A stretch of DNA of 59,051 bases from Thermoplasmatota archaeon (GCA_035687045.1 DASRYU010000050.1:1-59051), one strand, 5' to 3'; shown: positions 28,364 through 59,051, counted from the first letter of the stretch. A program made the numbers and translations. Notes: generated by a model from the letters alone, not told the origin.

Positions 28364-28867
28364 TCACGGCTCGACGAGGCCGCCGAGGAAGCCCAGCGCG
28401 AGCACCGCGACCGTCGCGAGCGTCACGACGGGCATGAACGGGTAGGCGGGCTTCCCGCGCGCAAGGAGCTTCGCCGCCGGCCACGAGAGAAGCTTGAGCA
28501 GCAGGAAGAACGCGAGGACGAGGCCGGCCGGGAGGAGCATGGCCGCCGCGACGCAGGCCGCCACGTCGGCCGTCGCGAGGCGGAGCCAGAGGCCGACCGC
28601 GCGGTGGCTGAGCACCCCGAAGAGCGCGACGAGGACCCACTTCGCGAGAAGCGGCGGCGCGGGGTCAAGCTCCGACTGCCACACCTGGATGCCCAGGAGC
28701 ACGAGCGCGACGGCCCACCAGACGTCCATGAACTCGCGCTGCGCCGCCATGTGCTTGATGTCGGAGAGCGTGGCGACGGCGAAGCTGCCGAGAAGGAAGA
28801 AGAGGCCGTAGACCTCCCAGCGCGAGAGGTCGAGCGCGACGAGGTCGAGGAGCTCGCGGTGGAGCAT
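28364..28867 (-). CDS. A24-family (prepilin/preflagellin peptidase-like) polytopic membrane protein, short and divergent (167 aa)
   Basis: - The first Asp motif is conserved (ATLSDIKH).
- The second site reads ATADVAA rather than GxGD.
- C-terminal YPFMPVV resembles the (I/A)PFGP motif.
- The start overlaps the ugd-like stop by 1 nt (TGATG). Confidence 0.45.
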   Translation of the reverse strand: MLHRELLDLVALDLSRWEVYGLFFLLGSFAVATLSDIKHMAAQREFMDVWWAVALVLLGIQVWQSELDPAPPLLAKWVLVALFGVLSHRAVGLWLRLATADVAACVAAAMLLPAGLVLAFFLLLKLLSWPAAKLLARGKPAYPFMPVVTLATVAVLALGFLGGLVEP

Positions 28868-36787: not shown

Positions 36788-37951
36788 TCACATCCGTACG
36801 GCGCGCTCCAAAACAGAACGCGCCGCAACGCCGGCGCGCACGGCGTCCTCCTCACTCATGGTAGGATGGACAAGGAAAGCGAGCGAGGACTCGTGGAGGA
36901 CGCGCGCGACGGGTTGTGCGTTCATCGACCCGAAGCGCTCGAAGGCCTTCTCGCGGTAGATCTCGCCGCAGCTCCCCGAAGCGCATGGCACCTGCTCCGC
37001 CTCCATGCTGGATAGCAAGCGCCCGCGGTCCCATCCGTCAGCGAGGTGCGCAGGATCAAGATAGGCGTAGAGGCGATAGTACGCGTTGCGTGCGCTGGGA
37101 CTAGGAATAGGGACGCGCAGGCCTGGCACTCCCTCGAGCGCCTTGGTGACGGCACGTGCGTTGCGTTGCCGCGCCGCGACCCACGCGGGGAGCTTGCGGA
37201 GCTGGATGCGCCCGATGGCGGCCTGCATCTCCGTCATCCTGTAGTTCGAGCCGAACGACTCGTGCAGCCACCGGAAGCCGGGGGGGTGCTGCCGTGCCAC
37301 TGCGGCCAGCGACTTCCCGTGGTCTTTGAACGACCACATGCGCTCAAAGAGGGCGTCGTCGTCGGTCACCACAAGCCCGCCCTCGCCGCCCGTCGTGATG
37401 ATCTTGTCCTGGCAGAAGGAGAATGCGGCGACGTGGCCGAAGCTGCCGACGGGCTTTCCATCGATCTCCGCCCCGTGCGCTTGCGCGCAGTCCTCAACGA
37501 CCGGGATATCGGTCTCGCGCGAGAGCTCCATGATCGGCGCCATCTCGCACGGCCAGCCGCCGAGATGAACGACGATCATGGCGCGAGTAGCAGGCGTCAG
37601 CGCCGCGCGCAGCGTGTCCGCGGTGACGTTGCCGCTCTCGGCGTCGACGTCGGCGACGACCGGCCGCGCTCCGACGAGCACGGCGGCCGCGGCCGTGGCG
37701 ATGAACGTGCGGCTCGGCACGACAACGTCGTCGCCAGGGCCGACCCCCAGCGCCCGGAGCGCAAGCTCCAGCGCAACGGTGCCGTTCGCGAGGGAGATCG
37801 CGTGGCGCCGCCCGAGGTGGGCCGCGTACTCGCGCTCGAACTCGCGGCACTCGTTGCCCGTCCAGAAGTTGACCTTGCCGGACGACAGGACGCGCTGGAC
37901 CGCCGCAATCTCGTCCTCCTCGAAGACGGGCCAACGAGGGTAAGGGAGCAC
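36788..37951 (-). CDS. DegT/DnrJ/EryC1-family PLP-dependent sugar aminotransferase (387 aa from GTG 37951). Last gene of the operon.
   Basis: - Family pattern ...EFEREYAAHLGRRHAISLANGTVALELALRALGVGPGDDVVVPSRTFIATA...
- Lys-containing SFCQDKIITTGEGG motif.
- The ORF track start (38416) lies inside the upstream gene. Confidence 0.85.
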   Translation of the reverse strand: MLPYPRWPVFEEDEIAAVQRVLSSGKVNFWTGNECREFEREYAAHLGRRHAISLANGTVALELALRALGVGPGDDVVVPSRTFIATAAAAVLVGARPVVADVDAESGNVTADTLRAALTPATRAMIVVHLGGWPCEMAPIMELSRETDIPVVEDCAQAHGAEIDGKPVGSFGHVAAFSFCQDKIITTGGEGGLVVTDDDALFERMWSFKDHGKSLAAVARQHPPGFRWLHESFGSNYRMTEMQAAIGRIQLRKLPAWVAARQRNARAVTKALEGVPGLRVPIPSPSARNAYYRLYAYLDPAHLADGWDRGRLLSSMEAEQVPCASGSCGEIYREKAFERFGSMNAQPVARVLHESSLAFLVHPTMSEEDAVRAGVAARSVLERAVRM

Positions 37952-37973: not shown

Positions 37974-39218
37974 CTACAAGTGCGTTTTCTCGGCGTCCTG
38001 CCGCGGCGCCAGCGCCACAAGGACCCCCGCGAGAACCCAGAACGCCCGGAAGTTCTCGATGTTGGTGAACAGACCCTGGACGAGGGAGGCGATGAAATAG
38101 CAGGAGAGCGCGACCGCGGCGCCCCATTCTCGTTGCGCGAAGGCGCGTAGCTGGAACCCCGCGGAGAGGATGAGCCACGCGCCGGCCGCAAGTCCGAGCA
38201 CGCCGAGCTCTGCGGCCATCGAGAGGTACGTGTTGTGGACGACGGTGGGCGTCCCGACGATGGGCTCCAGGTGAAGAGCGGCTTGACCGATACCTGCGCC
38301 GAGGAGCGGGTATTCAAGAAAGGCCCGCAGCGCCGCCTTCCAGAGCACCATGCGGTGGCCGACGTCCTTCCGCTCCGGCTCCTCACCCTCACCCGGTGTG
38401 ACCTCCTCGACTGCACGCGAGATCCGAGATGCGGGATCCGGAGCGGCCACCACGTACGCTGCCAGCACCAGCAGCGCGACCGACGCCCCCGGAGCGAGCG
38501 TCTTCAGCGCCTTCGTTCGTCGAAACACAAGCGGCAGCGCCGCCACGGCCGCGACAACGACGCCCAAGAGCATCCCTCGCGATGCCGTGGCGACGAGGCC
38601 TGCGAGCAGGATCCCTGCGCATAGTCCCTTCCAGGCGCTCCGGCGCCGCTGGGGAGTGCCATCCATCGCCTCGGTCGCGAGCAGCGCCGCGCAAGCCGCC
38701 GCAAGGAAGTTCGCGAAGAGGTTCGGGTTCGTGAATGTCGTCACAGGACGCGCGTCGCCCGCGAGCGAACGCACGATGGCCCATCCGGCGAGCGCGATCC
38801 CGCCGAACGTGAGGCCTCGGAGCAGCGCGCGCGTCGCGCTGCGATCTCCCCGCAGGAGCGCCCACGTCGCCAGGGCCCAGGCGACCGCGCCGACCAGCTT
38901 GATGAGGTCGACGACGCCGCGGCCGACGTCCAGCACATAGCCCGACGCCACGCCGACCATGAGCGAGAGCGCGGCGGCTCCCAGCAAGGCGAGGACCGGA
39001 CCCACGAGAACCGGTGGCGACGCGCGGAGCTGCCGAGCGATCGAGGCGCTCATGACGACAATGGCGGCAGCGACGAACAAGTCGCCGGCGCTCAAGGTCA
39101 GTCCCCAGCCCCCCGGGGCGACAGCCGTGAAGTGGAGCGGAAGGAGCAGCGCGAGCGCGAGGGCGGCAGGGACGCGCAGAGCGGCAATGTGCGAAGCAAC
39201 GCGCTGGCGCGGCGTCAT
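37974..39218 (-). CDS. Wzy_C-domain (O-antigen ligase/polymerase/PglL-type) polytopic membrane protein (414 aa)
   Basis: About 10 TM segments, with the signature VVHNTYLSMAAELGVLGLAAGAWLI (HN...E.G..G) in a late loop/TM region. Confidence 0.65.
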   Translation of the reverse strand: MTPRQRVASHIAALRVPAALALALLLPLHFTAVAPGGWGLTLSAGDLFVAAAIVVMSASIARQLRASPPVLVGPVLALLGAAALSLMVGVASGYVLDVGRGVVDLIKLVGAVAWALATWALLRGDRSATRALLRGLTFGGIALAGWAIVRSLAGDARPVTTFTNPNLFANFLAAACAALLATEAMDGTPQRRRSAWKGLCAGILLAGLVATASRGMLLGVVVAAVAALPLVFRRTKALKTLAPGASVALLVLAAYVVAAPDPASRISRAVEEVTPGEGEEPERKDVGHRMVLWKAALRAFLEYPLLGAGIGQAALHLEPIVGTPTVVHNTYLSMAAELGVLGLAAGAWLILSAGFQLRAFAQREWGAAVALSCYFIASLVQGLFTNIENFRAFWVLAGVLVALAPRQDAEKTHL

Positions 39219-39835: not shown

Positions 39836-39864
39836 CGCAACCGAGCGAGGCCAGCGCGGGTTTT

Positions 39865-47027: not shown

Positions 47028-48500
47028 TCAACGCGCAGCTGGCTCCGTGCCGATGGCTTGTGGGGCGGTGTCAAGGACTTCCCGTAGCCGCCGCCACGTG
47101 CTGGGGCCGGCCAAAATTACCACCGCGGCGACCTGAGCAGCGGCGAGTATCCAGGGCCGCAGCGGCAGAAGGGCGAGGAGCAGCACCGCTGCCAATGCAC
47201 CGACAGGAACAAGTACGCTAGCGTAGAAACGACGTATCTCCGCGCCACTCGCGTCGAGTGCGCGTAGGGCGCCCCTGCTGGTCGCGGCGAAGTAGGTGGC
47301 GTAACCTGCGGCGGCTCCCCCGGCGACGCCCTCGAGACCCAGGCCCGCCCGCGCCAGCAGTATGCTCGCTGGGAACCCGACGGCCGATGCCAGCAGAAGC
47401 GCGCTGTTCCTGGCCCGCCTAAGATCAAGCGCAAGGAGGACGTTCACCGACGTCCCGGCCAAGCCTACCAGGAACAGTCCCGCGACGACGACGCGCGCCG
47501 CGCCCACGCCCCCTGCGTACTCTGGGAGCAGGAGCCGCACCGCGAGGGGCAGCGCAATGACAATGGTCGCGACCACCGCGCCGACGAGGGCGGCAAGCCG
47601 CGCCGTGCTGGAAAGGAGGTCGGCCAGAAGCCCGCGTGGCTGGCCATCATCACCGAAGCGGCGACACATGAGAGCGTAGACGACCGAGTTGGCGGCGTTG
47701 AACACGGTGTGCGGGAGCACGAATGCCATCGCCCCGAGCGCGTAGAGCCCGAGCTCGGCCTCCGTGAACATCCCCAGCACGACGACCCGGTCCATCGTGC
47801 TCATCCACTGCAGCGCGACCACAAAGCCAAGAATGGGGAGACCGACCGACACGAGTCGCCGCGCCGCGCCGCGGTGGAAAGCTGGCTTGGCGAGGTCTGC
47901 CATCACAGCGAGCCCATAAGCAGCCACGGCGCCGTACGTGAGAAGGACGCCTGCAAGAAAGCCGTGCAGCCCCAGAGCGAGCGTGAGAACGACGCCAACC
48001 GTGTGTCCCAGCGCCTCGGCCAACGACATCCGCCCGACCAGATCGAAGCGCTGACGGGCGCGATGCACCGCGCCGGCATAGGCGCTCGCTTGGAGGAGGA
48101 CGAGCGTCGGCGCGAGAAAGCGCAGGCAGAGCCTCCAGTTGTCGTCGAGCGGGAGGACCCAGGTGAGCGCGAATAGCAGTAGCGCCGCAAGGGCAGCAGA
48201 GCTGAGAGCGATGCCGAACGCCGTCGATCGAACGCGCACTTCCTCGCCCATGTCGCGGAGCATTGGGAGCTCACGCTGCATGCTGTCGACGGTGCCGAGG
48301 TGCAGGTTCGCGCCGTACGTCAGCAGGAGTCGGGTGCCGATCCAAACACCCCAAATCGCGGGGCCGAGCAGCAGCGCCGCAGCGTAGTTGTTGAGCAGCG
48401 CCGCCCCGCTCGCGAGCACAGAGGACGCCCAATACTGCGTGCCGCCATGCATGAGGAGCCCACGCAGGCGCGGGAGGAGCGCGACGACGCGCGTACGCAT
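47028..48500 (-). CDS. MOP-superfamily oligosaccharide/polysaccharide flippase (Wzx-like, 490 aa from ATG 48500)
   Basis: About 12-14 TM segments. N-terminal pattern LLNNYAAALLLGPAIWGVW... is typical of the Polysacc_synt families. The ORF track start at 48701 overlaps the upstream gene. Confidence 0.7.
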   Translation of the reverse strand: MRTRVVALLPRLRGLLMHGGTQYWASSVLASGAALLNNYAAALLLGPAIWGVWIGTRLLLTYGANLHLGTVDSMQRELPMLRDMGEEVRVRSTAFGIALSSAALAALLLFALTWVLPLDDNWRLCLRFLAPTLVLLQASAYAGAVHRARQRFDLVGRMSLAEALGHTVGVVLTLALGLHGFLAGVLLTYGAVAAYGLAVMADLAKPAFHRGAARRLVSVGLPILGFVVALQWMSTMDRVVVLGMFTEAELGLYALGAMAFVLPHTVFNAANSVVYALMCRRFGDDGQPRGLLADLLSSTARLAALVGAVVATIVIALPLAVRLLLPEYAGGVGAARVVVAGLFLVGLAGTSVNVLLALDLRRARNSALLLASAVGFPASILLARAGLGLEGVAGGAAAGYATYFAATSRGALRALDASGAEIRRFYASVLVPVGALAAVLLLALLPLRPWILAAAQVAAVVILAGPSTWRRLREVLDTAPQAIGTEPAAR

Positions 48501-48502: not shown

Positions 48503-49930
48503 CTATACCCGCGCCGCCACCATCGTCAGGTCGCTGAGCGCCCGAACGTTCCCTTCGTCGAGGACGCGAGCATCCGTCCACGGGTTCTGTAGCGAGACCT
48601 TCGCTTCCACCGTGCCCTCGAGCACCGCCGCAACGTAGCGGAGGAGCGTCTCTCGGTCCGGCCGCCAAGTGCGAACGGCCGTTTGGAAGAGGCGTGGCCA
48701 CTCAGGCTTCGGGATTTGCCCAGCGCGGAGGAGAAGCGGATAGTCATCGTAGAACATCTCGCCGAAGGCGACCACGGGCCGCTCGAAGAGGATCGCCTCC
48801 CAGCCCATCGTCCCTGTGATCGTCGCGACGGCGGAGGCGCGCTCAAGGAGATCGAACGAGTCGACGTATGGGCTGACGAGGCGCACGTTCCAGATGCGCT
48901 TGATCCGGTGGTAGTCCTCGACGCTCCGCCGGCCCAAGCTGGCGAAGTGCTCCTTGACGTAGAGGCGGTGGCCCACCGGGAGGCTTCTCGCGATATCCTC
49001 GATGAGCGATACTTGGTCGAGGAAGAACGGCGCGAGGACGAGCGTCGAAGCTTCAGGCTGGAAGTGCAGCGGGTAAAGCACGAACTTTTCCCCAGGTGGG
49101 GGCACCTCGAAGAGCGGCGCGCTGCGCGAGTGCCGCCATAGACGCCGCGCGCGCTGCCGCAGCATCGTGCCTGCACGATCGAGCGTCACGTTGTCGGGGT
49201 CGACGCGCCGGCGCCGCAGCGTCATCCGCATCCGCCTGAACCCCTCCGCCAGGTCGATGTCGGGCTTCTTCACCGAGGATATCTCGCCGAGCACGACTGG
49301 CCGCGGGCGCCTCGTGCGGAAGTCTGCGAGGAACGCTTCCGCTGCCGCGTGCTCCTCCGGGCGAAGGCCCTCGGCCTGCATGCGCGCGAATGCTCGGCGA
49401 GCTAGCGGCCAGCGTTGACAAGCGTCGTTGTACACGGCGACGCGGCCGCGGATCCGCCCAGTGTCGAAGCCGATGCAGCGGATACCTCGCGTCTTCGCGA
49501 CGGCGTATAGGATCCAGCTCGCCATTCCCTCGACGCTCTCGAAGATGACGGCATCCGGCCGCACCGCATCGAGGGCCGCCTCGACCTGTCGAATGCTGAT
49601 CTCGAGAAGCCGCAGCATGCGGTCGTAGGGGAGGCGGGCGAGATGACGGTCTGCCCCCACGATGGTGTACAAGTTAGGCTGTCCCAAGGCGATCTCTGCC
49701 TTCTCCAGGAACGCCAGGTCGGCCTGCTCGCCGTCGCCCGAGGCGCGCAGCCAATCCGAGATGAAGTCGATCCTTGACCAGGTCACGCCGCAGGACTCGA
49801 GCGAGGGGAGCTGGTCGCGGCCGAACGCGAGCGCGCCGAACGTCTCCACGCCGTGGCGGTCGCGCAGATCGCGCGCGACGGCCGCGAAGAGCGGGTCGTG
49901 GACGGAGACGAAGATGTACGCGCGCTTCAC
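48503..49930 (-). CDS. Capsule polysaccharide biosynthesis (KpsS/KpsC, Capsule_synth)-family protein (475 aa from GTG 49930)
   Basis: C-terminal pattern LHFQPEASTLVLAPFFLDQVSLIEDIARSLPVGHRLYVKEH...ITGTMGWEAILFERPVVAFG. GTGA overlap with the upstream gene. Confidence 0.55.
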   Translation of the reverse strand: MKRAYIFVSVHDPLFAAVARDLRDRHGVETFGALAFGRDQLPSLESCGVTWSRIDFISDWLRASGDGEQADLAFLEKAEIALGQPNLYTIVGADRHLARLPYDRMLRLLEISIRQVEAALDAVRPDAVIFESVEGMASWILYAVAKTRGIRCIGFDTGRIRGRVAVYNDACQRWPLARRAFARMQAEGLRPEEHAAAEAFLADFRTRRPRPVVLGEISSVKKPDIDLAEGFRRMRMTLRRRRVDPDNVTLDRAGTMLRQRARRLWRHSRSAPLFEVPPPGEKFVLYPLHFQPEASTLVLAPFFLDQVSLIEDIARSLPVGHRLYVKEHFASLGRRSVEDYHRIKRIWNVRLVSPYVDSFDLLERASAVATITGTMGWEAILFERPVVAFGEMFYDDYPLLLRAGQIPKPEWPRLFQTAVRTWRPDRETLLRYVAAVLEGTVEAKVSLQNPWTDARVLDEGNVRALSDLTMVAARV

Positions 49931-50925
49931 AGTGCATACCTCGTCGGGCGGTAGCGGTCGAGGTGGCTGCGCATCCACTCGATGGTGCGGGATAACCCCT
50001 CCTCCAGCGTGACGCCCGGCGTCCATCCGAGCAATTCCTCGGCGAGGTTGTTCGACGCGATCAATCTGCCCACCTCGCTCGCATCAGGCCGCACGCGCGC
50101 TTCCTCCGACACGATGCGGACGTCGCGGCCGCAGAGCCGAACGATCTCGGCAGCGAGCTCGCCGATGCTAATCTCGCGCCCGCTGCCCAAGTTGACAGTG
50201 CGGCCGATGGCGCGGGAGGACTCCGCCGCTCGCAAGAAGCCGTCGACCGTGTTGCTGACGTAGTTCAGGTCCCTCGTCGGCGTAAGGTTCCCCAAGCGAA
50301 CCTCGTTGCCGGTCAAGCACTGGCTAATGATGGTGGGAATGACCGCGCGCGCGGACTGGCGTGGCCCGAAGGTGTTGAACGGTCGCACCGTCACAACAGG
50401 CAGGCCAAAGGACAGGTGATATGACTGCGCGAGCTTGTCCGCGCCGATCTTCGTCGCCGCGTAGGGAGACTGCCCCTGTAGCGGGTGCTCCTCGTCAATG
50501 GGAGCGTAGCGGGCCGTACCATACGCTTCGCTCGTAGAGGTATGGACGACGCGGCTGACCCCATGCTCCCGGGCGAGCTCAAGGATGTTCAAGGTGCCCT
50601 CGACGTTCGTGCGAACATACGACCGTGGCGCCGCATACGAGTACGGGATGCCGATCAGCGCGGCGAGGTGGAAGACGACGTCCGCTTCTTTCATCGCCGC
50701 AGAGAGGCTCCCGGGATCCTGCACATCAGCTAAGTGGACCGTGATCTCGTCGCGTGCTGGCGATTCGTCGAGCCAGCCCCAGCTTCCCAGTGCGTTGTAG
50801 TGGACCACCGCTTGGACGTCCGCGCCCTCGCGTGCGAGCGCTTCCGTCAGATGGCTTCCGATGAAGCCTCCTGCGCCTGTGACCACGACGCGCTTTCCGC
50901 GGAGACTCAAGAGGTCGACCTCCAT
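49927..50925 (-). CDS. Extended-SDR NAD-dependent nucleotide-sugar dehydratase/epimerase (LegB/4,6-dehydratase candidate, 332 aa)
   Basis: VVVTGAGGFIGSHL and YAATKIGADK (YxxxK). Confidence 0.8.
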   Translation of the reverse strand: MEVDLLSLRGKRVVVTGAGGFIGSHLTEALAREGADVQAVVHYNALGSWGWLDESPARDEITVHLADVQDPGSLSAAMKEADVVFHLAALIGIPYSYAAPRSYVRTNVEGTLNILELAREHGVSRVVHTSTSEAYGTARYAPIDEEHPLQGQSPYAATKIGADKLAQSYHLSFGLPVVTVRPFNTFGPRQSARAVIPTIISQCLTGNEVRLGNLTPTRDLNYVSNTVDGFLRAAESSRAIGRTVNLGSGREISIGELAAEIVRLCGRDVRIVSEEARVRPDASEVGRLIASNNLAEELLGWTPGVTLEEGLSRTIEWMRSHLDRYRPTRYAL

Positions 50926-51983
50926 GACTCCACGTCGCGCTGGGCTTGCTCGTAGTCGCTCAGTCGGCCGATGTCGAGCCAGTACTCGTGCACGGGGAAG
51001 CTCGCGACGGTGCGGCCCTTTGCGATGAGCCGGCCGATGAGGTCGGGCATGTCGAGTCGCTCGCCCGGCGTGATCTCGGCGTGCGCGGACGGCGACAGGA
51101 GGTAGATGCCGGCATTCACGAAGAACGAGAGCCGCGGCTTCTCCTCGATGCGCTCCACAACGGCGCCGCGCGAGTGGATGATGCCGTAGGGCACCTGGAG
51201 CTCGTATTGCCGCACACCAACGGTAAGGTCCGCCTTCTGCTCCTCATGGAAGGCGAGCATCGCGCGGAAGTCGACGCGCGTCAAGATGTCGCCATTGATG
51301 ACGAGGCGCGGGCGGTCGCTCGGCGGCAGGAGGCCGAGCGCTCCAGCGGTGCCGAGCGGCTTCTCCTCGGCGACGTATTCCAGGCTAACGCCGAAGGCCG
51401 CACCGTCGCCAAAATGGGCGCGGATCTTGTCGGCTTGGTAGTGAGTAGTGAGACTCACCTGTTGCACTCCGGCGTCCCGCAGCTGCAGGACGAGGCGCTC
51501 GAGGAGCGGCTTGTCGCCGACAGGCAGCATAGGCTTGGGCACGTCCTTCGTGAGAGGAAGCAGGCGCGTTCCGAAGCCGCCCGCCATCACGACGGCCTCG
51601 AGCAAGAGTGCTGCGGGTGGCGCTGGATCGGCGACGGCGAGGCCCGATGCTCCGCCGTCCGGACCGACGAGAGGGAGGTGCCGCACGCCGCGGCCGCGCA
51701 TCAAACGCGCAAGCTCCGCATGGGATGTTCCGGGCGCCGCCGTCAGCGGGCGCGCGAAGGGCCCCTGCGCCTTCTGCGCGAGCACCTCAGTGAGCGGGGC
51801 GTCGAGCGGAAGCTCCGCCAAGATGGCGCGCCGCACGTCGCCGTCGGTGATCGTGCCGGCGAACCGGCGCCCCTCGTCGAGCGCGAGCACGATGCCTACG
51901 CCGGTGCGGTCCAGGAGCGTCATCGCCGCACGAAGCGACTCATTCGCGGAGAGCGACAGCGGGGCAGGATCCAGTATCTTCAA
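50907..51983 (-). CDS. CBS-pair plus sugar-phosphate nucleotidyltransferase (PtmE-like, 358 aa)
   Basis: N-terminal tandem CBS motifs, then VMAGGFGTRLLPLTKDVPKPMLPV. TTG start, in a TTGA overlap with the upstream gene. Confidence 0.8.
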   Translation of the reverse strand: MKILDPAPLSLSANESLRAAMTLLDRTGVGIVLALDEGRRFAGTITDGDVRRAILAELPLDAPLTEVLAQKAQGPFARPLTAAPGTSHAELARLMRGRGVRHLPLVGPDGGASGLAVADPAPPAALLLEAVVMAGGFGTRLLPLTKDVPKPMLPVGDKPLLERLVLQLRDAGVQQVSLTTHYQADKIRAHFGDGAAFGVSLEYVAEEKPLGTAGALGLLPPSDRPRLVINGDILTRVDFRAMLAFHEEQKADLTVGVRQYELQVPYGIIHSRGAVVERIEEKPRLSFFVNAGIYLLSPSAHAEITPGERLDMPDLIGRLIAKGRTVASFPVHEYWLDIGRLSDYEQAQRDVESWRSTS

Positions 51984-52651
51984 GCGTCCACCTCTCGCAC
52001 GAGCATGAATGCTTCCGCGTATTCCACGCCTATCGCGGCCCCCCGGACGCGGGCGAGCGCGCGAATCGCGGACGAGCCGCGCGGCAGCGGGTCATCCTGC
52101 ACTTCGGTGCCGAACATCCGCATGATCTCGAGCTTGCGCTCAAGATAGGGGGTGATATCACAGTACACGTTCGGAAGGAAGGCTCGAGCCGGAAACGGGG
52201 GGGCAGCCTCGGTGGAGGAAAGGCATTCGAATGCGAGAATGCGGCGGACGCCAAGCCGGCGCATGTGGAACGCCTTCAGCACGATCATCGCGGCGTTCGC
52301 GACGACCTGGTGGTCGGTATGAACGTCGCCATGATGGACGAGGTACACGATCTCGGGCCGCACGCGCTCGATCACCTGCCGCAGCGCGTCCACCACCTCG
52401 TTGAGCGGGAGGTCCGTCAGGCGCGTGCTGGGAAGGCCGAGCCACGCGACGTCTTTGATGCCGAAAGCGCGCGCTACGCGTTCGACCTCGGCTTCCTTGG
52501 CGCGGATCGTCGCAGGGGCCCACCGATCGGGAGTTGCCTTCGTGACGATGGTCCAATGGACATCGTCGCCACGCTGGACGTGCGCGAGCATCGTGCCGCC
52601 GCATCCGATCGTTTCGTCGTCCGGATGGGCGCTCAGGATCAGGATCCTCAC
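51980..52651 (-). CDS. PIG-L/LmbE-family N-acetyl-sugar deacetylase (223 aa)
   Basis: ILILSAHPDDETIGCGGT plus downstream HxDH (HGDVHTDH). Confidence 0.8.
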   Translation of the reverse strand: MRILILSAHPDDETIGCGGTMLAHVQRGDDVHWTIVTKATPDRWAPATIRAKEAEVERVARAFGIKDVAWLGLPSTRLTDLPLNEVVDALRQVIERVRPEIVYLVHHGDVHTDHQVVANAAMIVLKAFHMRRLGVRRILAFECLSSTEAAPPFPARAFLPNVYCDITPYLERKLEIMRMFGTEVQDDPLPRGSSAIRALARVRGAAIGVEYAEAFMLVREVDA

Positions 52652-52661
52652 GTCAATCTCC

Positions 52662-53822
52662 TCAGAAGGTGTTTGTCTTGTTCAGCAGCCGTTCGTCGAT
52701 GGGCGTCGCCGCCAGTATGTGCGCGATGCGCTCGCCCGCGCGGCCGTCGCCGTACGGGTTCGAGCACTTCGCGACGCGAGCGCGGTAGCCGTCGTCGAAT
52801 GCCGCACGCTCAACGGCAGCCTGAATCTCGCGAGCGTCGTTGTTGACGAACTCGACATTCTCAGCGGCCTCACGACCGCGTTGGCGGGGGCCGGTATTGA
52901 CGACGGGCAGCCCGAACAGCGGGGCTTCAATGATGCCAGCGCTGGAGTTGCCCACCATGACGCGGGCGCGGCGCAGAAGCGTCACGAACACTTCCCGAGG
53001 CAGATTTCGGAAATCGTGCACGAGGGAAGGGTGTTCCCGCCGCGCGCGCTCAATCTCCCGAACGACCGGCTCGCGGCCGGCGTCGCTGTTCGGGTGGATT
53101 ACCACGAGGGGAAGCCCCGTCGCAAGCACGCCCTCCAGCGTCGCGCGCATCTCCGCGCCGGCGCCATCCGCGTTCGTGAGGATAGGGTGCTGGATGACGA
53201 GCGCGAAGTCGCCGTCGGCGACGGCGGATCCCAGGCGCGCGCGTATCTCCGTCGCCTCAAGTGGCGGCGTCCGAACCAGGCGGTCCAGCCCGGGCGCGCC
53301 GACGACGTGAACGCGCCACGCGTCCTCCCCCATGCGCTCAACGCGCTCAGCGCTGCGGGGCGTCGTGACCAGGTGAAGGTGCGCGAGCTTCGTGACGGCG
53401 TGACGTACAGCGTTGTCAACGTTCCCATCGGAGGCGATGTCGCCGCCGCCGATGTGGGCCACTGGAATGCGGAGGTACGCCCCCGCGAGCGCCACAGTGA
53501 TGGCCTCCTCACGGTCCATCGGCGCGACCACCCAATCAGGCCGCTCGCGCTCGAAGGTCTCGACCAGGCTCGCGAGCTGGATGCCGGCGCCACGCACGCG
53601 CGCCCCCTTCGAATCAGAATCCAGGAGGCTCTCGATGCGCGCCACGATGCGCACACCATCGCGCTCAATCTCGCCTACGGTGCCGCCGAAGCGCGCGGAA
53701 AGGTGCGCGCCCGTGACGATCACGCCTGGGTCCAAACCCCTCGCGGCGCAGGCGGCGATCACGGGCTGGAGGATGTCGTATTCGGAGCGGATCCCCGTGG
53801 TGAACAGGATCTTGCTGGGCAT
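52662..53822 (-). CDS. neuC: Hydrolysing nucleotide-HexNAc 2-epimerase (NeuC/LegG-like, 386 aa)
   Basis: KILFTTGIRSEYDILQPVI...PVAHIGGGD...HAVTKLAHLH pattern of Epimerase_2 / NeuC. Start at ATG 53822, inside the longer ORF. Confidence 0.85.
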   Translation of the reverse strand: MPSKILFTTGIRSEYDILQPVIAACAARGLDPGVIVTGAHLSARFGGTVGEIERDGVRIVARIESLLDSDSKGARVRGAGIQLASLVETFERERPDWVVAPMDREEAITVALAGAYLRIPVAHIGGGDIASDGNVDNAVRHAVTKLAHLHLVTTPRSAERVERMGEDAWRVHVVGAPGLDRLVRTPPLEATEIRARLGSAVADGDFALVIQHPILTNADGAGAEMRATLEGVLATGLPLVVIHPNSDAGREPVVREIERARREHPSLVHDFRNLPREVFVTLLRRARVMVGNSSAGIIEAPLFGLPVVNTGPRQRGREAAENVEFVNNDAREIQAAVERAAFDDGYRARVAKCSNPYGDGRAGERIAHILAATPIDERLLNKTNTF

Positions 53823-54757
53823 CAATACACGTCCGAATCCATCATCGCGTAGCTCCAGGCGCGCGGGTCGTCGAGGCCGGTGCAGCCGCCGAGGGAGCGC
53901 GCGCCCATGTAGGTGACGGGGGAAGTGAGGCCGAATCCAGCCTTCTCCAGGTCGCCGTGGAGGGGGTGGCGCAGCGGCAGCCAGCAGTTGACCGCGGAGG
54001 CACCTGCCAAAGCAGCTTCCTGCAGGAGACCTCCGACAAGACGGCGGCGAGCATCGTTGTCGTCGATCGAACGGAGTTCCAGGACGTCCAGCTCGGAACC
54101 GTAGCGCTTGTAGACGACGTACGCGCGCAGGTCGCGTCCGTCCTGCACTCCGCGAAGAACGTAGCTGTTCTCCGGGTGGCGGCCCAGGCGCCACCGGAGG
54201 TGTGCACCGTCCCGCACAACCTCGACGCCCGTCGCGCTCCGCGTCTCTCGCCACAGGTCGTCGAGGCGCGTGTCGTCCGCATCGAGGGGGGCCAGAGCCT
54301 CGCCTCCGCCCCGTGCCGGCCCGGGAAGGCGCAGGGTGGGAATCTCGAGGAGGTCTTCCCACCCGAGATCGCGGACGAAGCCGCGGTGACTCTGCGCGTT
54401 CGGGAAGCCCCACACGGCACCGTACCCTTCTCGCGACATACGCTCGTAGAGCCGCAGCGCAAGCGTCGTGAACAGCCCTTTGCCGCGATGCGCCGGGTGA
54501 GTCATCGTTGTCATCGAGAGGGCCGAAAGCACTTCGCGGCCGTCGACCAGGAGGCGCACCGGCGAGACCGCGTAGTGCGCTGCTAGGGTGTCGCCCGCCC
54601 ATGCGAGCTCGATCATCGGCTGCGCTCCTGAAGGGTTGTCGAGGAAGCGCCAGCGCCAGAACGCTTCGGACATGGGCCGTTGGAAGCAGATCGCGAAAAG
54701 GTCGAGGATCGCCTTCTCGTCGCCGGGCCTGTAAGGCCGGATGTCCAAGCCGCTCAC
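53822..54757 (-). CDS. GNAT-family N-acetyltransferase (311 aa from GTG 54757; ORF opens at 54772)
   Basis: IRPYRPGDEKAILDLF...HPAHRGKGLFTTLA (acetyl-CoA site-like). GTG 54757 gives a GTGA overlap with the neuB stop, like other junctions in this operon. Confidence 0.6.
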   Translation of the reverse strand: MSGLDIRPYRPGDEKAILDLFAICFQRPMSEAFWRWRFLDNPSGAQPMIELAWAGDTLAAHYAVSPVRLLVDGREVLSALSMTTMTHPAHRGKGLFTTLALRLYERMSREGYGAVWGFPNAQSHRGFVRDLGWEDLLEIPTLRLPGPARGGGEALAPLDADDTRLDDLWRETRSATGVEVVRDGAHLRWRLGRHPENSYVLRGVQDGRDLRAYVVYKRYGSELDVLELRSIDDNDARRRLVGGLLQEAALAGASAVNCWLPLRHPLHGDLEKAGFGLTSPVTYMGARSLGGCTGLDDPRAWSYAMMDSDVY

Positions 54758-55809
54758 GCTAAGTCCTCCCATCCGACGATATGGTCGGCCGCCAGATCCT
54801 GACGCGCTACGCGACCCACCACCCGCGGCAGCTCACGCGGGGCGAGCCCGCTGCCCGGGCGCTTCATCGCCAAGTGGGAGCGAGTGAGTCTCTCGCCCGC
54901 GCGTACAGGCGCGCGCAGCACGATGCTTTTGCGGCCGATCGCCGTGTTGTCCACCTCCGGTCCCCGCGGGCGCTTGACGCCGTCGCCCAGCGCCGCCTCG
55001 ACCAGGCGGACGGCGCGCACGAGCGCGGCGAACTCGTCGGGCGCCATGGACGCCGAGTGATCCGGGCCGCTCATGCTGCGGTCCAGCGTTATGTGCTTCT
55101 CGAGGAGCGCGGCACCGCGGGCGACCGCGGCAAGAGCCACCTCCACGCCCTGCGTGTGGTCGCTGAAGCCGACGGGTACCGCGAAGGCCGTGCGCAGCGT
55201 GTCCATGGCTCGAAGGTTCGCATCGGCGGCCGCGGCCGGATAAGCGGAGACGCAGTGGAGAAGCGCGAGCGGCCCTCCTCTGGCGGCGTGGATCGATGCA
55301 ACCGCCTCCTCCACCTCGGCAAGATAAGACATTCCCGTCGAAAGGAGCAGCGGTAGCCCGCTCTGCGCGAGGTGCTGGAGGAAGGGCAGGTTCGTGATCT
55401 CGCCGGAGCCGATCTTGATGGCTCGCACGCCGAGGCGTACGAGCAGGTCGGCGCTCTCCTCGTCAAAGGGGCTGCTGAGGAACTCGATGCCGCGCGAACG
55501 CGCCTCGTCGCGAAGCTCAGCGTGCGCGCGCTCGTCGAGCTCGAGGCGCCGCAGCATCTCCATCTGCGACTCGTCCGGCTGGGTCGTCGCGGCTTGATAT
55601 TTCGCCTTCGGGGCGCCAACGGTGGCGAGGCGGCCCGCGGAGAAAGTCTGGAACTTGATCGCGTCGGCGCCAGCGTCAGCCGCGACGTGCACGAGGCGCC
55701 GGGCGAGCGCGAGATCGCCATTGTGATTGACGCCAGCTTCTGCGATGACATAGCATGGTGTTCCCTCGCCGAGGAGCTTTGAGCCTATCCGGACCGTGCG
55801 CGGGACCAT
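54754..55809 (-). CDS. neuB: Nonulosonic acid synthase (NeuB/LegI/PseI family, 351 aa)
   Basis: CYVIAEAGVNHNGDLALARRLV...AGADAIKFQTF and a C-terminal SAF/antifreeze-like domain. Confidence 0.9.
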   Translation of the reverse strand: MVPRTVRIGSKLLGEGTPCYVIAEAGVNHNGDLALARRLVHVAADAGADAIKFQTFSAGRLATVGAPKAKYQAATTQPDESQMEMLRRLELDERAHAELRDEARSRGIEFLSSPFDEESADLLVRLGVRAIKIGSGEITNLPFLQHLAQSGLPLLLSTGMSYLAEVEEAVASIHAARGGPLALLHCVSAYPAAAADANLRAMDTLRTAFAVPVGFSDHTQGVEVALAAVARGAALLEKHITLDRSMSGPDHSASMAPDEFAALVRAVRLVEAALGDGVKRPRGPEVDNTAIGRKSIVLRAPVRAGERLTRSHLAMKRPGSGLAPRELPRVVGRVARQDLAADHIVGWEDLA

Positions 55810-55817
55810 GCATCGCC

Positions 55818-57125
55818 TCAGTTGTATTTGCGGAAGACCGGCTTCACGGGGCGGCCCACGAGGTGCTTGTGGACGCCTTCGTCGAGCGCCTTGCGATAGA
55901 CGCGGAACGCGCCGTCCGCCGCTTCGAGTGTGCGTTCGACCTCGGCCGGCCCGTGCGCCGCGCTGATGGCAAGGTAAGGGATGAGGACGCCGCGGCGCAC
56001 CATCTCTTGTAGAAAGAGCGCGCGGAACGCGGGGTCTGCCTCGCGCCCTTGGTTGCGCGTCACAATGAACGGGCTACAGGAGATGCCTTCGCAGGAGACG
56101 ATGCCGCTCAGCCCATTCTGTTCCGCGAGCTTGTTCATGCCCGACTGGAGCAGCTCGCCCGTCTTCCAGAGCTGTGGCACGACGTTCTTCTCGCGCACCT
56201 CGCGCACCGTTGCAAGACAGGCGGCGAGGCTGTGCGTTTCCGCGCCGTGCGTGGAGCTGAGAAGGAATACCTTGTGCTTGTCATGCCGGAGCCCGCCCAG
56301 CTCCATGATGTCCCGACGGCCTGCGAGCACCGCGACGGAGAAACCGTTCGCGATCGCCTTGCCGAATGTCGAGAGGTCGGGCGTGACGCCGTAGTACGCC
56401 TGCGCGCCGCGCTCGTGCCAGCGGAATCCTGTGATCATCTCGTCTAGGATGAGCAGCGCGCCGTGACGGTGGGCGAGGTCGCGCACCCTCTTGAGGAACT
56501 CGTCGCGCGGGTGCTCGAGCGTCGCGGCCTCGAGGATGACGCACGCGACCCCGTCCGGGTGCTGCTCGAAGATGCGCTCGAGGGAGGCGATGTCGTTGTA
56601 ACGGAACGGCAGGCTGAGGTCAGACACGGGGCGCGGGACGCCGTTGTTGGGCGGAGTCGTTCCAATGAACCAGTCGTCGAAGCTGAAGAAGGTGGGGCCT
56701 TGGCAGAACGCGACCGTGTCGCGCCCGGTGAAAGCGCGGGCGAGGCGCACGGCGGCTGTAGTCACATCGCTGCCGTTCTTCGCGAATTTGACCATCTGGG
56801 CGCTGGGGATGGTAGCGACTAGCTCCTCTGCCAGCTCCACCTCGATCGGGGACGGTCGCGTGAAGTTCGGGCCCTTCTCGAGCTGGCGCCGCACCGCGTC
56901 GAGGACGCGCGGGTGACCGTAGCCCAGAAGGACCGATCGGAGACCCATCCCCCAATCGAGGAACTCGTTGCCGTCGACATCCCAGACCGTAGAGCCATCG
57001 GCCCGCTCAATGAACCCGGGCGCGAGCTCGGGGAACTGGTCGTCACCTTTGCTGTAGGTGTGGCAGCCGGCGGGAATGATCTCGTGGGCGCGCGCCGAGA
57101 GCGCCTTCGACCGGGCGAACCTCAT
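55818..57125 (-). CDS. Class-III PLP aminotransferase (glutamate-1-semialdehyde 2,1-aminomutase-like, 435 aa)
   Basis: - N-terminus SKALSARAHEIIPAGCHTYSK...GSTVWDVDGNEFLDWGMG.
- LILDEMITGFRW.
- PLP-Lys context TFGKAIANG. Confidence 0.8.
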   Translation of the reverse strand: MRFARSKALSARAHEIIPAGCHTYSKGDDQFPELAPGFIERADGSTVWDVDGNEFLDWGMGLRSVLLGYGHPRVLDAVRRQLEKGPNFTRPSPIEVELAEELVATIPSAQMVKFAKNGSDVTTAAVRLARAFTGRDTVAFCQGPTFFSFDDWFIGTTPPNNGVPRPVSDLSLPFRYNDIASLERIFEQHPDGVACVILEAATLEHPRDEFLKRVRDLAHRHGALLILDEMITGFRWHERGAQAYYGVTPDLSTFGKAIANGFSVAVLAGRRDIMELGGLRHDKHKVFLLSSTHGAETHSLAACLATVREVREKNVVPQLWKTGELLQSGMNKLAEQNGLSGIVSCEGISCSPFIVTRNQGREADPAFRALFLQEMVRRGVLIPYLAISAAHGPAEVERTLEAADGAFRVYRKALDEGVHKHLVGRPVKPVFRKYN

Positions 57126-58102
57126 GGTGATGCTCTCGACTCCTCGCGTCGCGCGTCGCGCTCCGCGGCCTCAAGGGCCTCAAGGACGAGGCACTCCTCG
57201 CGGAAGGTGTAAGGGTAACGCCGCTCGTTGCGAAGCGCTTCGAGGAACAGCCGCATCTCCTCGACGTACATCGCCTCCAGGCGCGCGGAGCTGGCGGCGC
57301 AGGGCAGCACGTCCCGCGTTCCGGCCGCATCCACCACGACCTCCCCGCGTGTCGCGTCCCACTCGACCGTTCCCTCGGAGCCCACTACGCGCAGGGCGCG
57401 GATCGGTCTGCGCGCTAGCACGTCCGCCTGCAGGTGGCCGATCGCGCCCGAGGACGTCTCGAACAGGAAGTGGACGACATCGTCCACCTTCACGTCGAGA
57501 TCGCTCACTTTCCCGCCCAGCGAGCGTGAACGCACGGGCAGGCCGAAGAGCCAGCAGAGCCAACTCATTTCTATCGCGGCGACCTCACGGCACGCGGCCG
57601 TGCGCGGCTCGGCGACGAAAAAGGAGCGGTAATCTTCCCACGGATGCCAGTCCGGGAGGTACTGCCCCGAGTGGTGCGTGAACGCGAGCGGGCGACCGAT
57701 GCGGCCCGCCTCGAGCGCCGCCCGCACGAGCGCGACGGCGGGGTGGTGGCGCATCGTGGTGGATGGCGCGGCGAGGCTGCCGTGAGATGCCGCCACGCGC
57801 TCCGCCTCCAGGAGGCCGTCGCGGACGAGATTGAGCTCGCAGAAGTATGGAATGCCGCGCTCGGCCGCGGCCAACACGAAGGACTCGTGTGCCGCCGGCG
57901 CCGTGCTGATGATGAGGAAATCAGGTGACGCGGCCAGAGCCGCCTCGAAAGTCTCCGCCGTAGAGATCCCGTACTTCTGAGCAGCTTCTGCGCGCCGATC
58001 CGCGCGAACGTCCAGTCCGATGATGTCTCGCTCGCCCAGGGCGATGAGGTTGCGGACACGGCGCTGGCCCATGGAGCCGAGACCAACCACGAGCGCTTTC
58101 AC
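57122..58102 (-). CDS. Gfo/Idh/MocA-family NAD(P)-dependent oxidoreductase (326 aa from GTG 58102)
   Basis: VKALVVGLGSMGQRRVRNL Rossmann N-terminus. GTGA overlap with the upstream gene. Confidence 0.75.
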   Translation of the reverse strand: MKALVVGLGSMGQRRVRNLIALGERDIIGLDVRADRRAEAAQKYGISTAETFEAALAASPDFLIISTAPAAHESFVLAAAERGIPYFCELNLVRDGLLEAERVAASHGSLAAPSTTMRHHPAVALVRAALEAGRIGRPLAFTHHSGQYLPDWHPWEDYRSFFVAEPRTAACREVAAIEMSWLCWLFGLPVRSRSLGGKVSDLDVKVDDVVHFLFETSSGAIGHLQADVLARRPIRALRVVGSEGTVEWDATRGEVVVDAAGTRDVLPCAASSARLEAMYVEEMRLFLEALRNERRYPYTFREECLVLEALEAAERDARREESRASP

Positions 58103-58905
58103 GCGCCGCCCTCCATGTGCGTGTGCAGGGTTTCCTTGGTCCGCAATGCTTCCCAGTGCTTCGCGTACCAGTTCACGCCCGCATAGCGGGAATTCATAGC
58201 TGCGATGTCGGGGCGGCGCTCGAGCAGCGCGAGGATCTCCCGCATGCCGAAGAAGCCCCCTGGAATATAGAGCTCCTCGTAGACGGCTTTCACGAAGGCG
58301 TAGTCCTCGGGGTAATCGAGCGTCCACCGCTCGCGCTGCGATAGGTCGACCTCGTTGACCACGTTCCCCACGCGGAAGCGGCGAGGCTGGTCCCAAATGA
58401 ATGGCGATACGTGCTCGCGCTCGTGCGGCGCCTTCGCTTCCGACCACGCGATCTTCAGCGCCTCGTAGGAGAATGTCTCTGTGTCCAGCCCATCTGGGAA
58501 TGTGGCCGGGTGATTCGTGCTGACGTAATCGTAATTGCCGTCGCGGAACGTGCGCACGACCCGATCGACGACGTCGGGCTCGATCAGCGGACAATCCGAT
58601 GTCACGCGGACCACCGGATCGATGTCGTATGCCGTCGCGGCTTGATAGTAGCGGTCGAGGACGTCGTTCTCGCTCCCACGGAAGACTTCGTAGCCAACCT
58701 CTTCGACGAGCCGGACGATGACGTCGTCTGCGGGATTCGTCGTCGTTGCCACGATGATTCGGTCGACCTCGCGGCAGAGTTGCATGCGGTCGAGCATGTG
58801 GAGAAGGAGCGGTTTGCCGCACGCGGTCAGGAGCACCTTTCCAGGAAGGCGGCTCGATCCCATGCGGGCCTGGATGACCGCTGCTGCCTTGCCTCGTTCT
58901 GCCAT
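58099..58905 (-). CDS. Cytidylyltransferase-family protein (acylneuraminate cytidylyltransferase / SpsF-FlmC-like; CMP-NulO synthetase candidate, 268 aa). First gene of the operon.
   Basis: AAVIQARMGSSRLPGKVL...FRGSENDVLDRYY...VRVTSDCPLIEP. Start at ATG 58905. Confidence 0.75.
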   Translation of the reverse strand: MAERGKAAAVIQARMGSSRLPGKVLLTACGKPLLLHMLDRMQLCREVDRIIVATTTNPADDVIVRLVEEVGYEVFRGSENDVLDRYYQAATAYDIDPVVRVTSDCPLIEPDVVDRVVRTFRDGNYDYVSTNHPATFPDGLDTETFSYEALKIAWSEAKAPHEREHVSPFIWDQPRRFRVGNVVNEVDLSQRERWTLDYPEDYAFVKAVYEELYIPGGFFGMREILALLERRPDIAAMNSRYAGVNWYAKHWEALRTKETLHTHMEGGA

Positions 58906-58951: not shown

Positions 58952-59051
58952 CCGTTGGCCGCGCGCGCAGCCCTAATGGAGCGAGCGCGCTCTCGCCGGC
59001 ACGCCCACCACCGTCGTGCCCGCAGCAACGTCACGCAGCACCGCGGCGCCC

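Follow-up and report, generated by a model that had tools for sequence, protein, structure and literature searches.

A probable legionaminic-acid-type nonulosonic acid operon at a variable surface-glycan locus of a Thermoplasmatota archaeon

The locus and its genes

Nonulosonic acids (NulOs) mediate cell-cell, host and virus recognition. Here we describe a gene cluster predicted to produce a NulO of the legionaminic acid (Leg) type, which lies on a 59,051-nt stretch of DNA (termed the window; GCA_035687045.1, DASRYU010000050.1:1-59051) from a Thermoplasmatota archaeon. A 61.6-kb public contig (L001; ENA ERZ27256749 k141_571430) carries the window and DNA beyond it, and the same cluster was assembled independently from another run (L002, Logan assembly). 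Genes were assigned to families with Pfam and NCBIfam hidden Markov model (HMM) profiles, and NCBIfam scores were judged against the cut-offs of the models. We consider it probable that the core of this operon, about 23 kb in length, makes a CMP-activated Leg-type NulO, which is built into a lipid-linked surface glycan.

An earlier note, made from the sequence alone, had proposed a Leg-type module consisting of a NeuB-type synthase, a NeuC-type epimerase, a CBS-pair nucleotidyltransferase, an extended short-chain dehydrogenase/reductase (SDR), a cytidylyltransferase, a GNAT and a distal DegT aminotransferase. All seven are real genes, correctly placed on the minus strand (Table 1), and they match the named families with very strong HMM scores; since the E-values range from 1e-17 to 1e-131, chance matches are excluded. 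Three further genes lie within 49927-58905, namely a PIG-L deacetylase, a class-III aminotransferase (AT3) and a Gfo/Idh/MocA oxidoreductase (Gfo), and two more follow past the end of the window on L001, a PglD/NeuD-type acetyltransferase and a divergently transcribed PglF-like membrane dehydratase. From PglD to DegT, approximately 20 co-directional genes are packed into 23 kb, with overlaps of 1-4 nt or gaps of at most 67 nt (L001 gene calls). Because these genes overlap or sit 1-67 nt apart, the earlier placement of DegT in the same operon as the NulO genes is reasonable.

Table 1. Genes of the glycan locus in the window (coordinates counted from its first nucleotide)
Feature	Coordinates	Strand	Family match or remark
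PglD/NeuD-family hexapeptide N-acetyltransferase, candidate LegH, 3' end	58973..59051 (79 nt)	-	full gene L001 6184-6837; PglD_N + Hexapep
SpsF-type cytidylyltransferase, candidate CMP-legionaminic acid synthetase	58099..58905	-	CTP_transf_3 PF02348, 4.5e-32
Gfo/Idh/MocA oxidoreductase, PtmF-like	57122..58102	-	Pfam
AT3, class-III GSA-aminomutase-like (PRK06209) aminotransferase	55818..57125	-	NF004856 647.6 bits, cut-off 486; Aminotran_3
NeuB/LegI-type nonulosonic acid synthase	54754..55809	-	NeuB + SAF; TIGR03569 435.9 bits, cut-off 399.65
GNAT acyltransferase, candidate re-acylating enzyme	53822..54757	-	Acetyltransf_9
NeuC/LegG-type hydrolysing 2-epimerase	52662..53822	-	Epimerase_2; TIGR03568 350.8 bits, cut-off 235.9
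PIG-L/LmbE-family N-deacetylase	51980..52651	-	PF02585, 3.1e-27
PtmE/LegX-like CBS + nucleotidyltransferase	50907..51983	-	CBS + NTP_transferase
LegB-like NAD-dependent 4,6-dehydratase, extended SDR	49927..50925	-	TIGR04180 443.9 bits; public gene call starts 50910
Capsule_synth/KpsC-like protein, candidate CMP-ulosonic-acid-dependent glycosyltransferase	48503..49930	-	PF05159, 3e-6
Wzx-type flippase	47028..48500	-	Pfam scan
AsnB-type amidotransferase, second, 669 aa	44973-46982	-	Pfam scan
Wzy_C-GT2 fusion	42922-44976	-	Pfam scan
AsnB-type amidotransferase, 642 aa	40992-42920	-	Pfam scan
GT4 glycosyltransferase	39865-40995	-	Pfam scan
Bac_transf initiating transferase	39215-39850	-	Pfam scan
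Wzy_C (O-antigen polymerase/ligase-like) membrane protein	37974..39218	-	Pfam scan
DegT-family aminotransferase, PglE-like, not LegC family	36788..37951	-	DegT family; NCBIfam
Archaeal-type GlmU-like nucleotidyltransferase/acetyltransferase	33015-34169	-	
GlmS	31145-32968	-	

The NulO synthase and the hydrolysing epimerase

The NeuB homologue passes the NCBIfam NeuB/LegI model (Table 1), while its 271 bits on the PseI model remain under the cut-off of 340. In a neighbour-joining (NJ) tree, with NeuB of Escherichia coli K1 and Neisseria meningitidis, SpsE of Bacillus subtilis and three PseI proteins from annotated pse operons as references, it is placed far from the three PseI sequences. The catalytic residues E25, E134, E234 and R314 (N. 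meningitidis numbering) are kept, and the best match among solved structures is B. subtilis SpsE (201.7 bits). The NeuC homologue passes the hydrolysing-epimerase model and reaches only 77.8 bits on the wecB model (cut-off 210). Accordingly, both outcomes named in the earlier note as fatal to its proposal, a synthase in the PseI clade and a non-hydrolysing epimerase of the WecB type, came out negative.

A pseudaminic acid (Pse) pathway is excluded. In addition to the PseI score and the position of NeuB outside the PseI references, no PseG match was obtained among the core proteins with NCBIfam models, and the SDR reaches only 58 bits on PseB. The reference pse operons are organised differently from the window locus. 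The proposal of a legionaminic-type rather than a pseudaminic product is thus supported at the level of gene families, by the NeuB/LegI-type synthase, the hydrolysing NeuC and the LegB-like and PtmE-like genes of the same operon.

The expectation that neuraminic (Neu), Leg and Pse synthases form cleanly separated clades held for Pse, but not for Neu versus Leg: E. coli K1 NeuB nests inside a large clade of our NJ tree, and the same mixing is found in a published tree of 7,714 sequences (PMC8208679). The NCBIfam model does not separate the two types either. Since Neu and Leg synthases are not separable by model or tree, the Leg assignment rests on gene context.

LegB, PtmE and the gene context of NeuB relatives

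The LegB-like SDR displays GxxGxxG, STSE and YxxxK motifs and is 50-67% identical to the LegB genes of Leg loci, including those found beside a true LegC, to which it is likely orthologous. The gene upstream of it has the PtmE/LegX architecture, and its product is 46-53% identical to PtmE-like proteins encoded next to LegB in Leg loci. Its earlier description as a CBS pair plus nucleotidyltransferase stands for the nucleotidyltransferase and one CBS domain (residues 5-55, Pfam); the second CBS falls below the threshold and is a stretch seen by eye only, within the 125-residue N-terminal region. Both genes are translationally coupled to NeuC and NeuB in the NulO operon. PtmE/LegX is a functional as well as bioinformatic marker of Leg pathways and was needed for Leg synthesis where tested (bioRxiv 10.1101/2022.03.25.485807), and LegB of Tannerella forsythia accepts GDP-GlcNAc only (PMC5378307).

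The same context recurs around related synthases. We sampled 80 genome loci harbouring the closest NeuB relatives (identity up to 60%), 47 of them with full flanks of ±10 kb. A LegB homologue (at least 45% identity) is present in 43 of the 80 loci, a PtmE homologue in 49 and a PglD-type acetyltransferase in 59, and LegB and/or PtmE occur in 34 of the 47 fully flanked loci (approximately 72%).

These neighbours bear on the possibility that NeuC, NeuB and the cytidylyltransferase make CMP-N-acetylneuraminic acid (CMP-Neu5Ac) from UDP-GlcNAc, with LegB and PtmE serving an unrelated deoxysugar. Such a route would agree with the Neu5Ac enzymes after which the models passed by NeuB and NeuC are named, and with the intermixing of Neu and Leg synthases in trees (NJ tree; PMC8208679). 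However, a single operon contains NeuB and NeuC with LegB, PtmE and the PglD-type acetyltransferase interspersed among them, no NeuA-type synthetase was found in the locus, and the nearest NeuB relatives reside mostly in Leg-context loci. We regard a Neu5Ac route as very improbable.

Proposed pathway

The order of steps and the substrates proposed here for the Leg-type product follow analogy with Campylobacter jejuni, T. forsythia and B. subtilis. GlmS and/or a pair formed by the PtmF-like Gfo and AT3 would provide a hexosamine phosphate, which the PtmE-like enzyme would activate, probably with GTP, and an acetyltransferase would then yield a nucleoside diphosphate (NDP)-linked GlcNAc; GlmS and the GlmU-like enzyme likely serve hexosamine precursor supply. 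Following 4,6-dehydration by LegB, an aminotransferase would add the C4 amino group, with the PglE-like DegT or AT3 as candidates in place of the missing LegC, and the PglD/NeuD-type enzyme would acetylate the C4 amine. NeuC would remove the nucleotide and epimerise C2, NeuB would condense the product with phosphoenolpyruvate, and the SpsF-type enzyme would generate the CMP-sugar. PIG-L may remove an N-acetyl group, most likely at the future N5, where GNAT would add a different acyl group. Finally, the KpsC-like protein would be a candidate transferase for the activated sugar, and Bac_transf, the glycosyltransferases, Wzx and the Wzy-like proteins would assemble and export the glycan.

Several observations weigh against this pathway. 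The LegB-like SDR remains 31 bits short of the curated TIGR04180 cut-off of 475, although its second-best family reaches only 155 bits and the LegB of locus L083, which lies beside a bona fide LegC, also stays under the cut-off (453.7 bits). The NJ tree leaves Neu and Leg synthases unseparated, the relationship of the cytidylyltransferase to characterised CMP-NulO synthetases is remote, and AT3, Gfo, PIG-L and GNAT are given their roles on the basis of context only. Moreover, the 61.6-kb contig contains no LegC-family gene, and a full PglF-DegT-PglD set is also present, which leaves room for a UDP-linked route.

DegT, PglD and the bacillosamine-type cassette

The aminotransferase at the distal end of the operon is the only DegT-family gene on the contig. 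The family named in the earlier note is correct; a LegC identity is not, as the protein scores 203.4 bits on TIGR04181 (cut-off 420), versus 470.7 bits for the true LegC of L083, which adjoins LegB. In a related archaeon (L168), a Bac_transf-PglD-DegT-PglF cassette adjoins GlmU-GlmS, and its DegT shares 63% identity with that of the window. In the window locus, the parts of such a bacillosamine-type cassette (DegT, Bac_transf, PglD and PglF) flank the NulO and assembly genes, which look like an insertion into it. The PglD/NeuD-type acetyltransferase scores 187.2 bits on TIGR03570 (cut-off 160.8) and qualifies as LegH type. The GNAT, if it was meant in the earlier note as the LegH equivalent, fits this role poorly, and the hexapeptide enzyme just outside the window is the candidate.

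Through this cassette, PglF, the PglE-like DegT and PglD might make UDP-N,N'-diacetylbacillosamine both as the first sugar for Bac_transf and as a NeuC substrate for Leg synthesis, similar to the routes of Legionella pneumophila and B. subtilis, in which case LegB and PtmE would be redundant or feed another sugar. All four cassette genes are present and LegC is missing from the contig. The cassette is shared with the related archaeon (46-65% identity), which shows no Leg genes in its visible 8 kb before the contig ends. SpsF-type cytidylyltransferases are typical of UDP-linked Bacillus pathways (PMC7439481), and Legionella NeuABC make Leg (cited in PMC3694923). Yet, LegB and PtmE are translationally coupled within the NulO operon and resemble the versions in GDP-type loci at the identities given above, and PtmE/LegX was needed for Leg synthesis where tested (bioRxiv 10.1101/2022.03.25.485807). 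Weighing both sides, we consider the UDP-linked route possible but doubtful, and prefer the LegB- and PtmE-dependent pathway.

The SpsF-type cytidylyltransferase, Gfo and AT3

The gene next to PglD in the operon encodes a cytidylyltransferase, as the earlier note had stated (CTP_transf_3). It is not of the NeuA/LegF type: NCBIfam models gave no NeuA or PseF match and only weak N-terminal KdsB matches, and the protein shares with E. coli K1 NeuA the N-terminal motif only. It matches PDB 6oew over the full length (139 bits) and is 24% identical, again over the full length, to the SpsF-like gene product of a Bacillus cereus pse operon. Production of CMP-Leg in B. subtilis depends on spsF (PMC7439481).

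AT3 contains an FGK motif with the pyridoxal phosphate lysine. Its closest relatives in a metagenome scan (57-67% identity) reside in the NulO loci L083, L084, L086 and L115, and more distant ones (up to 57% identity) in other deoxysugar-type clusters. A Gfo gene, whose product is 37-44% identical to that of the window, lies directly upstream of AT3 in L083, L084 and L115, and a Gfo-SpsF fusion occupies this place in L086. The SpsF-type gene adjoins Gfo-AT3 in L083, L084 and L086; L115 has the Gfo-AT3 pair only. L083 and L086 are Leg-type loci with LegB and PtmE. Searches against solved structures yielded no functional lead, the matches being restricted to glutamate-1-semialdehyde (GSA) aminomutases and distant class-III enzymes for AT3 and to weak, generic ones for Gfo.

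Gfo homologues adjoin the cytidylyltransferase in many Leg loci. Where AT3 is missing (L033, L042 and L052), a PtmF-like Gfo adjoins the cytidylyltransferase and a second Gfo-like gene is present as well, and AT3 occupies the position that PtmA or this second Gfo takes in other Leg loci. PtmF is a 326-aa oxidoreductase (PMC4481668), and PtmA and PtmF have been assigned to the initial part of the pathway, in which the GDP-sugar is built (PMC4481668; bioRxiv 10.64898/2026.04.20.719630). Because a PtmF-like Gfo adjoins the cytidylyltransferase elsewhere and PtmA and PtmF are assigned to the GDP-sugar segment, we infer that Gfo and AT3 form a variant of the precursor-supply branch, with AT3 in the PtmA position.

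Alternatively, AT3 might replace LegC and aminate the NDP-4-keto-6-deoxy-GlcNAc produced by LegB at C4. It is the sole aminotransferase within the NulO core, the window and L086 are compact Leg operons with AT3 and without a LegC-family gene, and distant family members occur in deoxysugar-type clusters. Nevertheless, L083 and L115 carry a LegC-type gene in addition to AT3, several Leg loci devoid of AT3 (L043, L053 and L067) are also without LegC within ±10 kb, AT3 is nearly always paired with a Gfo, which a keto-sugar aminotransferase does not need, and no solved homologue acts on NDP-sugars. A LegC function of AT3 therefore appears distinctly unlikely. A late action of the pair, which would oxidise and transaminate a NulO hydroxyl (e.g., at C8 or C4) to give a triamino sugar, strikes us as slightly less likely again. 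A sugar hydroxyl is normally converted to an amino group by a dehydrogenase acting with an aminotransferase, Flexibacter maritimus has an 8-amino NulO (PMC3210612), and the presence of CN_hydrolase with AT3 in six loci fits a glutamine-dependent transaminase; but many Leg loci have a PtmF-like Gfo without an aminotransferase partner, PtmF and PtmA have been placed in the precursor segment (PMC4481668; bioRxiv 10.64898/2026.04.20.719630), and no structural data tie the gene set to a triamino sugar. We thus retain precursor supply as the preferred role of Gfo and AT3.

Genes of the CN_hydrolase (nitrilase/omega-amidase) family lie directly downstream of AT3 in L083 (11302-12093), L084 (11302-12087), L139 (11416-12084) and L162 (2233-2967) and elsewhere in the AT3 loci L091 and L158; the window has none. 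In those loci, AT3 and CN_hydrolase are suggestive of a glutamine-transaminase/omega-amidase pair. Two SpsF fusions, one with Gfo (L086 8190-9974) and one with a HisF-like domain (L083 7309-8853), point to a functional coupling of CMP activation with oxidoreductase and amidino-forming enzymes. In the lipopolysaccharide (LPS) locus of Legionella pneumophila serogroups 6/12, a set comprising a GNAT, a PseG-like protein, a class-III “GSA aminomutase” and an SpsF-like “glycosyltransferase” lies beside HisH/HisF (PMC3694923). This non-serogroup 1 set resembles L083 and the SpsF-Gfo-AT3 trio of the window, and was assigned no function there (PMC3694923).

The NeuC-PIG-L-GNAT sub-module

The window NeuC is only 30-40% identical to most NeuC proteins linked to relatives of the window NeuB and falls into a divergent subclade together with those of L012, L043, L068, L082 and L084. 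As in the window, PIG-L directly follows NeuC in four of these five loci. The window PIG-L shows the AHPDDE and HxDH motifs, and homologues with 48-60% identity follow NeuC in L005, L009, L012 and L068. Overall, PIG-L is located after NeuC in 12 sampled loci, where the partner enzyme is a formyltransferase (seven loci), an ATP-grasp ligase (one) or a GNAT (two). The seven formyltransferase genes lie between NeuC and PIG-L in loci outside the NeuC subclade. A homologue of the window GNAT was found in only one of 160 loci, L082 of Clostridium beijerinckii HUN142, which has the same NeuB-GNAT-NeuC-PIG-L order. The solved-structure search gave no functional lead for the GNAT (Eis at E = 0.04).

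On the simplest reading of these gene arrangements, PIG-L would free an amine, which is then formylated, aminoacylated or acylated by the partner enzyme. In Candidatus Kuenenia stuttgartiensis, CMP-NulOs whose amine is free or formylated arise from a Leg-type cluster that includes deacetylase and formyltransferase genes (bioRxiv 10.64898/2026.04.20.719630), and the archaeon Halorubrum sp. PV6 produces 5-N-formyl-Leg (PMC6137143). As the partner in the window is a GNAT, a non-acetyl, non-formyl N-acyl group is predicted, probably at N5, both the position and the kind of acyl group being drawn from the gene set.

In an Acetobacterium wieringae metagenome-assembled genome (MAG), a flagellin-type Leg locus (L043 5425-17413) comprises genes for a Maf glycosyltransferase, LegB, PtmE, PglD, NeuB, an ATP-grasp ligase, NeuC, PIG-L and a radical SAM protein, with the ligase just upstream of NeuC-PIG-L. 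This looks like a route to an N-aminoacyl legionaminic acid, a type of sugar reported on clostridial flagellins.

Predicted assembly and export of the glycan

KpsC beta-Kdo transferases use a CMP-ulosonic acid as donor. Directly downstream of LegB, the operon encodes a protein of 475 aa whose similarity to these enzymes is weak but specific (Capsule_synth in Pfam; PDB 6mgd, KpsC, at 2.5e-6), and weak KpsC-like homologues are found beside NulO genes in L035, L040 and L061 (two archaea and one Omnitrophota bacterium). The protein is the candidate legionaminyl transferase. Further downstream, genes for Wzx, two AsnB proteins, a Wzy_C-GT2 fusion, a GT4, Bac_transf and a second Wzy_C follow, and by its gene families the Wzx/Wzy/Bac_transf set is a bacterial-style lipid-linked assembly system.

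The AsnB-type genes (642 and 669 aa) are situated on either side of the Wzy_C-GT2 fusion, and two NDP-sugar dehydrogenases are encoded at 28867-30186 and 35272-36714. The AsnB enzymes may amidate uronic acids made by these dehydrogenases.

Host, composition and origin of the locus

The host is a Thermoplasmatota archaeon, judging from two native genes of the high-GC3 part of the window (GC3, GC content at third codon positions). All named matches of GlmS (55-77% identity) are Thermoplasmata/Thermoplasmatota MAG proteins, bacterial ones being approximately 50% identical, and the Lhr helicase is 84% identical to a Thermoplasmatota MAG protein, with all named top matches archaeal. On related contigs, genes for HerA-Mre11-Rad50 and for an archaeal preflagellin peptidase occur. 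A bacterial host is rejected, since GlmS and Lhr group with archaeal genomes. The earlier remark that NulOs are documented in few archaea is apt: chemical proof exists for no more than a couple of organisms, and 6 of 122 genomes were predicted to encode a complete pathway (PMC6137143).

GC3 amounts to 0.91-0.98 for all genes left of approximately 33 kb; from 33015 onwards, all genes up to the contig end have values of 0.76-0.87, the ABC-transporter genes beyond the window included. This sharp step falls between GlmS and the GlmU-like gene. The right-hand 28 kb behaves as a compositionally distinct glycan island. A chimeric assembly at this step is rejected, as the GlmU-GlmS adjacency is kept in four related contigs and the cluster was obtained independently in the assembly L002. 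Beyond GlmU the relatives differ: L168 has the PglFED plus Bac_transf cassette, L171 has GT87/DUF6311 and L172 has unrelated genes. On the GlmS-UvrD-holin side, L171 keeps synteny with the window. By this comparison, the glmU-glmS-adjacent site is a hypervariable surface-glycan locus in the lineage. Among the few relatives sampled, only the window organism has the Leg module.

NeuB and LegB have their nearest relatives in bacteria, namely Rokubacteria/Methylomirabilota and Acidobacteriota (up to 59-67% identity). Archaeal NeuB proteins reach 46-51% identity in the genome-scan loci and 51.7% for a plasmid-borne NeuB of Halorussus. The closest plasmid-borne NeuB, from Azospirillum lipoferum (56.7%), lies among different genes and is uninformative. 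The bacterial NeuB and LegB relatives, the variable locus and the drop in GC3 together suggest that the NulO cluster was acquired from bacteria; composition alone is no proof of this, because the syntenic GlmU-like gene already has the lower GC3.

A more far-reaching proposal combines an undescribed Leg-type sugar, with the N5 acetyl group exchanged by PIG-L and GNAT and with AT3 and Gfo providing either the LegC step or a third amino group, with the transfer of the whole NulO-Wzx/Wzy module from bacteria into a native bacillosamine cassette. If true, Thermoplasmatota would here have their first Leg pathway, one with a new enzyme solution; as a whole, we judge the combination rather unlikely.

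Outside the glycan locus, a tRNA-Asn gene (13188-13261) is followed by approximately 12 kb of genes mostly without Pfam matches. The region 13188-25900 is slightly lower in GC (0.69-0.70); its AT skew is strongly negative between 24 and 26 kb, and a “Holin-X” family protein (24909-25886) lies near its end. Either an integrated element or simply lineage-specific genes could account for it, and the UvrD-holin neighbourhood is retained in L171. At 6584-10450, the Lhr-type helicase is accompanied by an SbcD-related/PdeM-like phosphoesterase (TIGR00024, 100.6 bits), which corresponds to the ligase-associated DNA-damage-response pair, with no ligase adjacent.

Comparison with known systems

The CMP-legionaminic acid pathway of C. 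jejuni comprises LegB, LegC, LegH, LegG, LegI and LegF as well as PtmE, PtmF and PtmA (Schoenhofen et al. 2009, summarised in PMC5378307 and PMC4481668). The window shares LegB-like, PtmE-like, PglD/LegH-type, NeuC-type and NeuB-type genes with this pathway, as well as a cytidylyltransferase beside a PtmF-like Gfo. It differs by the lack of a LegC-family aminotransferase, an SpsF-type instead of a NeuA-type cytidylyltransferase, a class-III aminotransferase in the PtmA position and the additional PIG-L and GNAT. Furthermore, the window genes belong to a Wzx/Wzy-type glycan operon of an archaeal host, whereas those of C. jejuni are part of a flagellin glycosylation island. The cluster thus falls outside a strictly C. 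jejuni-type pathway with regard to LegC and LegF, yet most likely works like it.

Halorubrum sp. PV6 is likewise an archaeon with clustered LegB, LegG, LegI and acetyltransferase genes and GlmS nearby, and its product bears a non-acetyl N5 group (formyl), a non-acetyl group being probable at N5 for the window too. In contrast to the window, it possesses LegC, a NeuA-type LegF and a formyltransferase; PIG-L, GNAT, AT3 or Gfo were not reported, and PtmE is not mentioned (PMC6137143). In Candidatus Kuenenia stuttgartiensis, a deacetylase among the leg genes was linked to a free or re-acylated CMP-NulO amine, i.e., a modification at the level of the nucleotide sugar (bioRxiv 10.64898/2026.04.20.719630). 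Its partner there is a formyltransferase rather than a GNAT, and the two deacetylases are compared by their described roles. The sps system of B. subtilis also has an SpsF-type cytidylyltransferase and a NeuB homologue, SpsE, but employs UDP-linked precursors, the PseG-like SpsG instead of NeuC and the DegT-type SpsC, and is devoid of PtmE (PMC7439481).

Among the metagenomic NulO loci, L083, L084 and L086 harbour the same SpsF-Gfo-AT3 set, and none of L082, L083, L084, L086 and L115 combines it with the NeuC-PIG-L-GNAT sub-module as the window does. Unlike the window, two of these loci (L083 and L115) possess LegC in addition; HisH/HisF-type amidotransferase genes and the HisF-SpsF fusion occur in L083, and the Gfo-SpsF fusion in L086. 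Those parts that are added or substituted are found again in uncultured bacteria, without an assigned function.

This locus adds soil and sediment Thermoplasmatota to the organisms with a probable Leg pathway and suggests that the uptake of bacterial-type modules at a variable glmU-glmS-adjacent locus can remodel archaeal surface glycans. Two sub-modules that recur in Leg clusters emerge as targets for enzymology, cytidylyltransferase-Gfo-AT3 and NeuC-PIG-L, the latter with an acyl or formyl transferase that varies. Prokaryotic genomes very often contain NulO clusters, and the window locus is otherwise an ordinary member of a widespread pathway family and nothing categorically new; its points of interest are the archaeal host and the two sub-modules to which no function has been assigned.

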